Of a stretch of 55,073 nucleotides of DNA, positions 26,395 through 26,775 are shown one piece after another. The DNA lies in NCBI GenBank assembly GCA_049318685.1, contig JBMOFW010000001.1:1-55073 (forward strand), read 5' to 3'. Both the position numbers and the translations under genes were made by a program. Within the stretch, counting starts at the first letter, position 1. Each line of letters opens with the position of its first letter. The DNA is from Flavobacteriales bacterium. Lineage in GTDB: Bacteria; Bacteroidota; Bacteroidia; Flavobacteriales_D; Sanyastnellaceae. The notes under the pieces were generated by a model, which made no database searches, was not told the origin of the DNA, and saw only the letters and a program-made list of their open reading frames with translations.

Positions 26395-26426
26395 AAAAAA
26401 AAGCCCTCTGGTGTTTCCAGAGGGCT
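26395..26426 (-). terminator. Intrinsic terminator of attenuator unit 2 (proximal to metY)
   Basis: Minus-strand RNA AGCCCUCUGG / AAACA / CCAGAGGGCU followed by 8 U. It ends 28 nt upstream of the metY ATG. Confidence 0.75.
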
Positions 26427-26448
26427 TTGTGATGTGCGGTGTTAAAAG

Positions 26449-26547
26449 TTAAAACGTACCACAACAAACAACCTCCGGCATTCGGGGAAGACAGCACATG
26501 CAGCACATCATATTTTTAAAATGACTCATCTCTTCGTTTCGTTTCAT
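26449..26547 (-). CDS. Candidate Met/Cys-rich leader peptide 2 (32 aa)
   Basis: MKRNEEMSHFKNMMCCMCCLPRMPEVVCCGTF has 6 Met and 6 Cys in 32 codons. It shares FKNM..MMCCM with leader 1 and ends 22 nt before the terminator stem. Confidence 0.55.
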   Translation of the reverse strand: MKRNEEMSHFKNMMCCMCCLPRMPEVVCCGTF

Positions 26548-26582
26548 TTGATTTAATTCACTCTTCACCTTCGCTTTGGGCG

Positions 26583-26614
26583 AAAAAAAAAGCCCTTCGG
26601 GTTTCCGAAGGGCT
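26583..26614 (-). terminator. Intrinsic terminator of attenuator unit 1
   Basis: Minus-strand RNA AGCCCUUCGG / AAAC / CCGAAGGGCU followed by 9 U. Confidence 0.75.
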
Positions 26615-26642
26615 TCTTTCTTTATGCGTATTTTTTAGTTCA

Positions 26643-26720
26643 TCATGCGCAAATGAAAGCTGCTGTCCTTCGGTGATCCGAGGTCATACAACACATCATA
26701 TGGCACATGTTTTTGAACAT
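26643..26720 (-). CDS. Candidate Met/Cys-rich leader peptide 1 (25 aa)
   Basis: MFKNMCHMMCCMTSDHRRTAAFICA has 5 Met and 4 Cys in 25 codons. It starts about 22 nt downstream of the TATATTTG -7 box and ends 28 nt before the terminator stem. Confidence 0.55.
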   Translation of the reverse strand: MFKNMCHMMCCMTSDHRRTAAFICA

Positions 26721-26742
26721 TCTTTGTCGTTTTGGCGTGCTG

Positions 26743-26775
26743 CAAATATAGAAACATGATTTTCCTTTTTTACAA
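26743..26775 (-). promoter_or_regulatory. Candidate promoter of the leader-metY-metX-hom transcript
   Basis: On the minus strand, TATATTTG (26750-26743) is a perfect TAnnTTTG match. A TTG lies at 26775-26773, 22 nt upstream. Confidence 0.5.

Follow-up and report, generated by a model that had tools for sequence, protein, structure and literature searches.

Two tandem Met/Cys-codon leader-peptide attenuators are predicted ahead of metY-metX-hom in a Flavobacteriales bacterium

Leader-peptide attenuation is a textbook form of transcriptional control, linked to the amino acids Trp, His, Leu, Thr, Phe and Ile/Val and more recently to Cys, for which leaders are known only from Actinobacteria and Rhodobacterales. 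Control of methionine is credited to protein repressors, T-boxes and S-adenosylmethionine (SAM) riboswitches. When riboswitches or T-boxes occur in tandem, two terminator switches share one leader, from which a steeper or more stringent response is expected; we know of no described tandem leader-peptide attenuator. Here we analyze a stretch of 55,073 nucleotides (nt) from a Flavobacteriales bacterium (GCA_049318685.1, JBMOFW010000001.1, positions 1–55,073; hereafter the window), on whose minus strand the leader of the metY-metX-hom operon holds two consecutive units, each consisting of an upstream open reading frame (uORF) with a run of Met and Cys codons followed by a terminator. We consider it likely that these units are two classical ribosome-mediated transcription attenuators in series, which would sense the charging of Met- and Cys-tRNA and control metY-metX-hom.

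The classical trpL, hisL, leuL, thrL, pheL and ilv leaders (RF00513, RF00514, RF00506, RF01859) combine a short open reading frame (ORF) holding end-product codons with alternative 1:2, 2:3 and 3:4 pairings and a Rho-independent terminator, a plan that the metY leader is predicted to share, with a comparable balance of energies. The metY leader differs from them in mixing Met and Cys codons for a methionine/homocysteine operon, in belonging to the Bacteroidota, in its TAnnTTTG promoter and lack of a Shine-Dalgarno sequence, in apparently placing two complete attenuators in series and in having no sequence homology to them (27 bits, where the gathering score is 55). Leader peptides with Cys codons have been predicted, without terminators, before actinobacterial cys/cbs operons (Seliverstov et al. 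2005, PMC1262725), and mycobacterial polycysteine leaderless small ORFs were shown to act on translation (Canestrari et al. 2020, bioRxiv 10.1101/834739). In those systems too, stalling on a Cys run reports cysteine and turns on sulfur amino-acid genes, but the metY leader has canonical terminators, Met codons as well as Cys codons, a predicted 5' untranslated region (UTR) of ~15 nt, and metY-metX-hom as its target. Nor does it match a mycobacterial-type translational attenuator: the 28-nt A-rich spacer between terminator 2 and the metY start is unstructured and unpaired, and no sequestering helix precedes metY. Nearer in mechanism is uORFC-8-2, a predicted cysS transcription attenuator of Rhodobacterales with two tandem Cys codons (Brewer et al. 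2021, PMC8632094). It is likewise a predicted ribosome-mediated attenuator with Cys codons and an intrinsic terminator; unlike the metY leader it is alphaproteobacterial, targets a tRNA synthetase, consists of a single unit and has no Met codons.

Two further systems invite comparison. The SAM-I riboswitch (S-box, RF00162) likewise lies 5' of metY in most other Bacteroidota, serves the same pathway and acts by premature termination; it would be the functional counterpart of the Met codons, but it is a metabolite-binding aptamer and is absent from the window. Relative to tandem riboswitches and T-boxes, the difference is that both units here would be leader-peptide attenuators. The initial annotation of this DNA had known of no described Met/Cys leader attenuator, and our literature search turned up neither a Met-codon attenuator nor a Bacteroidota metY leader peptide nor a composite of SAM-I with a uORF, although priority is not fully excluded; Rfam 15 has no family for a Met/Cys metY leader. 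What appears to be new is the combined Met and Cys specificity, the phylum and the tandem layout, the proposed mechanism itself being classical.

The proposed elements of the two units are as follows. The positions given by the initial annotation for the −7 box, the uORFs, the pairing segments and the U-tracts all proved exact on the minus strand when we read the sequence.

26643–26720, minus strand: uORF1 (leader peptide 1), MFKNMCHMMCCMTSDHRRTAAFICA and stop; from the sequence, the ORF list and relatives
26685–26708, minus strand: regulatory run 1, AUG UGC CAU AUG AUG UGU UGU AUG, 7 of 8 codons Met or Cys
26638–26718, minus strand: unit 1 protector hairpin (extended 1:2), with CCUCGG (26683–26678) paired to CCGAAGG (26673–26667) at its top
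26667–26673, minus strand: unit 1 segment 2, CCGAAGG, the anti-terminator strand; complement of CCUUCGG in the 5' arm of terminator 1 (26611–26605)
26583–26620, minus strand: terminator 1, stem GCCCUUCGG / CCGAAGGGC (26613–26592) with A·U extensions, loop AAAC and U9 (26591–26583)
26449–26547, minus strand: uORF2 (leader peptide 2), MKRNEEMSHFKNMMCCMCCLPRMPEVVCCGTF and stop; from the sequence, the ORF list and relatives
26491–26511, minus strand: regulatory run 2, AUG AUG UGC UGC AUG UGC UGU, 7 of 7 codons Met or Cys
26486–26490, minus strand: proposed segment 1 of unit 2, CUUCC (26490–26486)
26472–26478, minus strand: unit 2 segment 2, CCGGAGG, the anti-terminator strand; complement of CCUCUGG in the 5' arm of terminator 2 (26423–26417), with one G·U pair
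26395–26428, minus strand: terminator 2, stem GCCCUCUGG / CCAGAGGGC (26425–26403) with A·U extensions, loop AAACA and U8 (26402–26395)

In the mechanism we propose, RNA polymerase starting from one Bacteroidota-type promoter would transcribe uORF1 while a ribosome translates the emerging RNA. With Met and Cys plentiful, the ribosome would pass the run, and segment 2 would be recaptured by the protector (1:2) or, in most relatives, be hidden under a ribosome at the adjoining stop. With segment 2 unavailable, the terminator would form and transcription would stop at ~26583 (unit 1) or ~26395 (unit 2). When Met- or Cys-tRNA is scarce, the ribosome would stall on the run (26708–26685) and melt the protector; segment 2, lying at the edge of the stalled ribosome, could then capture the terminator 5' arm (2:3), and read-through would follow. 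Unit 2 would repeat the test at 26511–26491 with terminator 2, and metY-metX-hom would be reached only by transcripts that pass both units; serial units should multiply attenuation and sharpen the response. We infer translation of the uORFs, the choice of the 2:3 pairing by stalling and the sensing of both amino acids. Sensing Cys together with Met would be sensible if homocysteine made by MetY also supplies cysteine.

The two Met/Cys uORFs that the initial annotation had placed before metY-metX-hom stand out from everything else in the window: they are its only small ORFs in which 7 of 8 residues are Met or Cys, all others scoring 4 or less, and their exact shared core, ATGATGTGYTGYATG, occurs at just these two sites in the 55 kb. 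Units 1 and 2 can be aligned over their whole length, and their runs, second segments and terminators fall into matching columns, which suggests an old tandem duplication. A dispersed repeat or mobile element was considered and rejected, there being only two copies in 55 kb, both in the leader.

We then compared metY loci from 80 Bacteroidota represented by one genome per species, 80 metagenomic metY loci and the loci of the 10 closest MetY homologues (84–97% identity), several of which come from named Flavobacteriales metagenome-assembled genomes; individual loci are labeled L followed by a number. Alignment of related metY upstream regions, as envisaged in the initial annotation, shows that the tandem design and the uORFs with Met/Cys runs are kept. 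The family of the window comprises 14 loci and 27 uORF-terminator units, the 13 relatives being Flavobacteriales-type loci with MetY identities of 76–97%. Its tandem members are the window, L166, L167, L161, L162, L163, L164, L168, L081, L165, L170, L169 and L159, and these share the order uORF1-terminator-uORF2-terminator without SAM-I; L038 is a single-unit member. The 10 closest relatives, including the 5'-truncated L161, all have both units and no SAM-I. An in-frame alternative AUG of uORF2 at 26529 (MSHFKNMM...) is the start kept in L161 and L162.

The reading frame of these runs is conserved. An in-frame ATG lies at least 10 codons 5' of the run in 90 of 96 runs, against 9 and 4 for the other two frames. 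Cys is encoded by both of its codons (264 UGU, 131 UGC), which swap among relatives with the Cys identity retained. Eleven relatives yield the uORF1 consensus MF..MC(H/C)MMCC(K/M/H)(S/T)S(E/D).RR, whose last six codons, UCC UCG GAA nnC CGA AGG, hold both CCUCGG and CCGAAGG. All unit 1 copies have the same nucleotides in segments 1 and 2, although the residues that CCUCGG encodes vary (T/S/P and D/E), indicating selection on the RNA. CCGAAGG itself encodes Arg-Arg in unit 1 of the window and Pro-Lys-Glu, Pro-Lys-Ala or Ser-Lys-Ala in other units, with different frames used in L038, L170 unit 2 and L169 unit 2. In most relatives, including L163, L164, L165, L168, L170 and L081, a UAG stop follows directly 3' of segment 2. 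This stop has been lost in the window, L166, L167, L161 and L162 (AGG UAG to AGG ACA), lengthening uORF1 by 7–8 codons (...TAAFICA; 26666–26643 in the window).

The anti-terminator pairing (2:3) is significantly stronger than expected from dinucleotide shuffles in both units of the window. The duplex reaches −12.5 to −13.7 kcal/mol in unit 1 (null −7.2 to −7.6 ± 2; p = 0.011–0.028) and −12.5 kcal/mol in unit 2 (null about −7.4 ± 1.9; p = 0.014–0.018). The corresponding duplex of L038 also exceeds its shuffles (p = 0.0005–0.003), and the terminator arm of L166, CCUCCGG, is a perfect match to CCGGAGG. Position is conserved as well: the best complement of the terminator 5' arm begins 6–14 nt past the run in 26 of the 27 family units, and segment 2 begins 10–11 nt past the run in the window. 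When arms were swapped between units, segment 2 paired better with its own arm (−11.5 kcal/mol) than with those of other units (−9.7 ± 0.4 kcal/mol; p = 5e-5). In a gapless spliced alignment of the units, the paired share of 2:3 cells is 76% (71.1 ± 1.4 in shuffles) and covariation scores 0.20 (0.12 in shuffles), with 0/500 shuffles reaching either value; this alignment was anchored on the complementary cores and is hence biased to structure, and the family units are related by descent, which inflates the covariation and duplex p-values. With the register shifted, 59% and 50% of cells are paired in the same alignment. At the central position 11 units have A-U, 8 have G-C, 2 have G-U and none is unpaired; the A-U/G-C switch there separates the two unit types, with unit 2 supplying G-C. 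The 2:3 pairing proposed by the initial annotation is thus borne out by its position past the run and by its covariation with the terminator.

The terminators (3:4) are conserved features of the family, in which 96% of 3:4 cells are paired and both sides have changed in 7 of 11 pairs. The hairpin of terminator 1 alone folds at −25.2 kcal/mol and is also part of the minimum-free-energy (MFE) structure of unit 1; a pattern scan reports it on the plus strand only, and its minus-strand call comes from reading and folding the sequence. Terminator 2 (−21.4 kcal/mol alone) is listed on the minus strand by the same scan. The GC-rich stem and 8–9 U that had been described after each uORF are therefore upheld by sequence, folding and family covariation. 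That these might be terminators of a preceding gene was rejected because the neighbors, yceI and pth, are divergent on the plus strand.

In unit 1 the protector is the MFE structure of the pre-terminator transcript (−27.8 kcal/mol), and every unit 1 copy keeps its CCUCGG-N4-CCGAAGG hairpin unchanged except in the loop (p = 0.003–0.05 against shuffles). Folding assigns unit 2 a different protector, a long hairpin that would pair the Met/Cys run with ~26464–26452. Unit 1 as a whole folds far below shuffles (z = −7.4) and unit 2 moderately so (z = −2.9). The energies of protector, anti-terminator and terminator (−27.8, −21.3 and −25.2 kcal/mol in unit 1; −20.7, −20.7 and −21.4 kcal/mol in unit 2) are balanced in these models, much as in the trp attenuator. 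We also folded the nascent RNA before the 3' arm of the terminator with a 28-nt ribosome footprint forced unpaired, and took the probability that the 5' arm of the terminator is sequestered upstream with no ribosome, with a ribosome stalled on the run and with a ribosome at the stop. These probabilities are 0.36, 1.00 and 0.70 for unit 1 of the window, and 0.63, 0.84 and 0.48 for the family mean; family means for unit 2 are 0.73, 0.78 and 0.50. Sequestration is higher in the stalled than in the at-stop state in 24 of the 27 family units. In this model the mask folding backs unit 1 well and unit 2 weakly.

Several observations, in addition to the biased alignment and shared descent noted above, weigh against two working attenuators in series. 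The anti-terminator core has 7 base pairs (bp) against 9–12 bp in the terminator, and with the terminator 3' arm present the terminator always wins at equilibrium. In unit 2 of the window the three ribosome states are barely separated (0.86, 0.87 and 0.74), and the anti-terminator is already the MFE structure of the ribosome-free nascent RNA (ΔΔG 3.1 kcal/mol). The 2:3 complementarity of L159 unit 2 is not significant against shuffles, and the Saprospiraceae-type leaders L052, L077 and L114 have no significant simple complement of the terminator arm (p = 0.24–0.69). The 1:2 pairing of the initial annotation, which folding and shuffles favor in unit 1, is not supported for unit 2: the CUUCC:GGAGG pairing is weak, lacks conservation and does not beat shuffles (p = 0.34), 1:2 is not significant in most unit 2 copies, and it shows no covariation in the pooled set of units. 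In the sub-lineage of the window, moreover, the uORF1 stop lies 18 nt past segment 2, such that a terminating ribosome would no longer cover segment 2, in keeping with the at-stop value of 0.70. Because the terminator wins at equilibrium and the states of unit 2 are not separated, the choice between structures would have to be kinetic, made during transcription, as it is in trp. The attenuator reading put forward by the initial annotation is nonetheless much strengthened by the tandem conservation, the frame and the placement of 2:3.

No known riboswitch accounts for the leader. An Rfam search at gathering scores found no family in the whole 55-kb window, and a permissive search (E ≤ 10) of 26300–26950 found no SAM family, its sub-threshold matches being driven by the terminators (for example Phe_leader and Thr_leader, at 27 bits where 55 would be required). 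Under the same Rfam search SAM-I scores 64–84 bits in 30 of 40 other metY loci. A home-built nhmmer profile of SAM-I was also negative in the window and in its 10 closest relatives. SAM, T-box and other riboswitches were therefore rejected for the window, where Rfam gives terminator-driven noise only, and the initial annotation, which had recognized no SAM riboswitch and had pointed to Rfam as the check, was right on this count.

Elsewhere in the phylum, uORFs of this kind are common before metY. An ATG-initiated ORF with at least 5 of 8 residues Met or Cys, at most 450 nt 5' of metY, is present in 51 of the 80 species-set loci, compared with 0/80 in antisense, 3/2,094 in other chunks and 3/1,600 in shuffles. 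Counting all sets, a uORF with a Cys/Met run is found in 93 of ~156 evaluable Bacteroidota metY loci; most of these uORFs lie directly behind SAM-I and are Cys-rich. Sorting the leaders by Rfam and the SAM-I profile gives the following designs.

Design A, SAM-I only: 20 of 78 evaluable loci in the species set, 19 of 69 in the metagenome set
Design B, SAM-I followed by a 30–55 codon uORF ending in a Cys run: 45 of 78 and 22 of 69
Design C, one or more uORFs only: 8 of 78 and 9 of 69
Neither SAM-I nor uORF: 5 of 78 and 19 of 69

Codon content differs between these designs. Where SAM-I is present, Met makes up a fraction of 0.16 of the run (80 Met to 416 Cys codons in 67 distinct peptides); where it is absent the fraction is 0.46 (108 Met to 132 Cys codons in 36 peptides; p = 1.5e-11), and still 0.48 with the family of the window excluded (p = 1e-4), p-values that are optimistic because the loci are phylogenetically related. 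This enrichment suggests that Met codons are a feature of leaders that lack an RNA sensor of SAM. The presence of SAM-I in 18 of 20 uORF-less loci had suggested that uORF and SAM-I are mutually exclusive, an idea we rejected because most uORF loci also carry SAM-I just upstream. The occurrence of SAM-I and a Cys-run uORF in series in 67 loci instead argues that the two are complementary sensors rather than homologues. Judged from these comparisons, the Met/Cys leader would be an end-member of a phylum-wide metY Cys/Met uORF system that is usually combined with SAM-I. For the fuller account, in which the window holds the riboswitch-free end-member of an undescribed phylum-wide system that is SAM-I-coupled elsewhere and has here gained Met codons and been duplicated, we regard the case for and against as evenly balanced.

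Design B leaders (67 loci; for example L015 2609–2994, L009 2605–3000 and L001 2615–3000) have features of their own. Their run is nearly pure Cys and is followed by the stop, and the uORF AUG lies 9–12 nt past the end of the aptamer as called by the profile, ~7–10 nt past the 3' strand of P1. With the AUG so close behind the aptamer, SAM may gate translation of the uORF: a SAM-stabilized P1 could occlude the initiation region, creating a composite sensor of SAM and Cys. After the uORF comes a conserved segment, CCAGCAACACA, whose complement is the last part of the Cys run, and then an irregular hairpin of ~60 nt (L001 ~2880–2960, L015 ~2880–2950) with three apparently covarying stems, CUAGCC/GGCUAG, GAUC/GGUU and CUGCC/GGCAG, and a conserved apical loop, NNGUGACR, usually without a U-tract after it. 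These stems were read by eye from the alignment, and MAFFT with RNAalifold recovered 3 bp only. A strict pattern for the GUGAC-loop hairpin matches 27 of 67 loci with SAM-I and a uORF, 1 of 39 with SAM-I only and 0 of 27 with a uORF only, and the hairpin has no Rfam match at gathering scores.

Riboswitch-free leaders also occur in two other forms. One is found in Marinilabiliales-like and other genomes (L036, L051, L062, L094, L095, L149, L028, L120 and L146); its runs are very Met-rich near the stop (HMMMCMMMTR, GMMMGRMSMA, MMCMMMMR). As no canonical terminator was found between uORF and metY in this type, its mechanism may differ from that of the window. The other form comprises the Saprospiraceae-type leaders L052, L077 and L114 (MKINFANINPCTFGNAV-CCMCCC-...), in which a mid-ORF Cys run is followed by strong terminators 77–95 nt downstream; their anti-terminator, if there is one, would be built differently.

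Could attenuation be real and yet respond to a single signal, be it Cys alone, Met alone or general translation stress, with the codon mix meaningless? Most Bacteroidota runs are almost pure Cys (416 Cys to 80 Met codons) and the known precedents are Cys-only leaders (PMC1262725; bioRxiv 10.1101/834739; PMC8632094); it also counts against dual sensing that the limiting tRNA cannot be read from sequence alone. Yet Met is enriched where SAM-I is absent, also outside the family of the window (0.48 against 0.16, p = 1e-4), some riboswitch-free leaders are nearly pure Met (HMMMCMMM in L051, GMMMGRMSM in L036 and L094), and both the Met and the Cys positions of MC(H/C)MMCC in uORF1 are conserved among relatives, so we regard single sensing as unlikely. 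A related doubt concerns unit 2: it might be a duplicate in decay, or serve constitutively as a partial terminator or a pause site, without responding to amino acids and leaving unit 1 to work alone. The poor discrimination of unit 2 by mask folding (0.73, 0.78 and 0.50 in the family; 0.86, 0.87 and 0.74 in the window), its non-significant small 1:2 hairpin and the single unit of L038 would all fit. A decaying copy, however, sits badly with the retention of uORF2, its run, CCGGAGG and terminator 2 in 13/13 tandem loci (76–97% MetY identity), with the G-C partner that unit 2 supplies to the covarying pair and with a 2:3 duplex as significant as that of unit 1 (p = 0.014–0.018); we hold it to be very unlikely.

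Two other explanations dispense with ribosome stalling altogether. Since AUG, UGU and UGC share UG, the run is also a UG-rich RNA motif, and segments 1 and 2 are selected as RNA and not as peptide; the triplets and segments might be bound by a protein, as triplet repeats are by TRAP, or by a small ligand, whose binding would decide between terminator and anti-terminator, the ORFs being incidental. Such an RNA-only switch would leave unexplained why start, frame and stop are conserved (90/96 in-frame ATG against 9 and 4 in other frames), why synonymous UGU/UGC exchanges preserve Cys and why a stop lies directly past segment 2 in most relatives, which makes sense only with a ribosome. The run is, moreover, no fixed RNA sequence across lineages and matches no Rfam family, and we consider this reading extremely improbable. 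Equally, Cys-rich small peptides exist and each ORF has its own terminator behind it, as would be expected of functional Cys/Met-rich micropeptides (binding metal or sulfur, or precursors of ribosomally synthesized and post-translationally modified peptides). But peptide sequence and length are not conserved outside the run, the RNA pairing persists through changes in the residues past the run, no adjacent gene for modification or transport is present, and the element recurs specifically before metY, often behind SAM-I; a micropeptide function is scarcely credible. Two leader-peptide attenuators in series thus remain our preferred reading.

The promoter and the genes that the attenuators would control are as follows.

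26773–26776, minus strand: −33-like promoter element, TTTG; read from the sequence, promoter function inferred
26743–26750, minus strand: Bacteroidota-type −7 box, TATATTTG (consensus TAnnTTTG); read from the sequence
25032–26366, minus strand: metY (O-acetylhomoserine sulfhydrylase / homocysteine synthase), first regulated gene; TIGR01326, E = 3e-204
24020–25123, minus strand: metX (homoserine O-acetyltransferase); TIGR01392, E = 3e-105
22830–24023, minus strand: hom (homoserine dehydrogenase), last gene of the operon; NF004976, E = 2e-95

We place the promoter by the −7 box kept in relatives: it reads TATATTTG or TATCTTTG, 21–22 nt from the uORF1 AUG, in L081, L162–L168 and L169, and TTTG lies 22 nt 5' of it in the window, L081, L162, L163, L164 and L168. 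Transcription is predicted to start at ~26737–26735, giving the ~15-nt 5' UTR ahead of uORF1. The true start of metX is probably ~25051, with a 20-nt overlap with the end of metY as in relatives. Together, the products of metY-metX-hom make homocysteine from aspartate-derived homoserine and sulfide.

Repeats lie on either side of the two units, in the window or in relatives. The densest GATC cluster of the window (26825–26892; 7 sites spaced 8 or 16 nt) falls in the intergenic region where yceI and the leader promoter diverge. It grows in the relatives L166 (17 sites) and L167 (11 sites), both 97% identical, and is absent in remoter ones, where other short tandem repeats take its place (in L165, for example, repeats of GGAACAAGG). 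L166 (~1430–1480) and L161 (~300–350) carry an additional GC-rich inverted repeat, CCUCCCUCUCCUCUGGAGAGGGUUGGGGUGAGG, after terminator 2 and before the start of metY; it is absent from the window and from L167.

Because riboswitches for SAM, T-boxes and repressor proteins have been given the credit for methionine control, an attenuator with Met codons, or with Met and Cys codons mixed, would, if true, fill a long-standing gap; it would be the first Met-codon, the first dual Met and Cys and the first tandem leader-peptide attenuator. With three designs before one gene (SAM-I; SAM-I with a Cys uORF; Met/Cys uORFs) and a codon content that shifts between them, metY offers a natural experiment in which the division of labor between a metabolite-sensing RNA and a sensor of tRNA charging can be studied, and its serial attenuators would be a test case for response sharpening. 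More broadly, ~60% of Bacteroidota metY leaders hold an unannotated, putatively functional short ORF, and the design of the leader suggests that, in the organisms that carry it, homocysteine made by MetY feeds cysteine as well as methionine.

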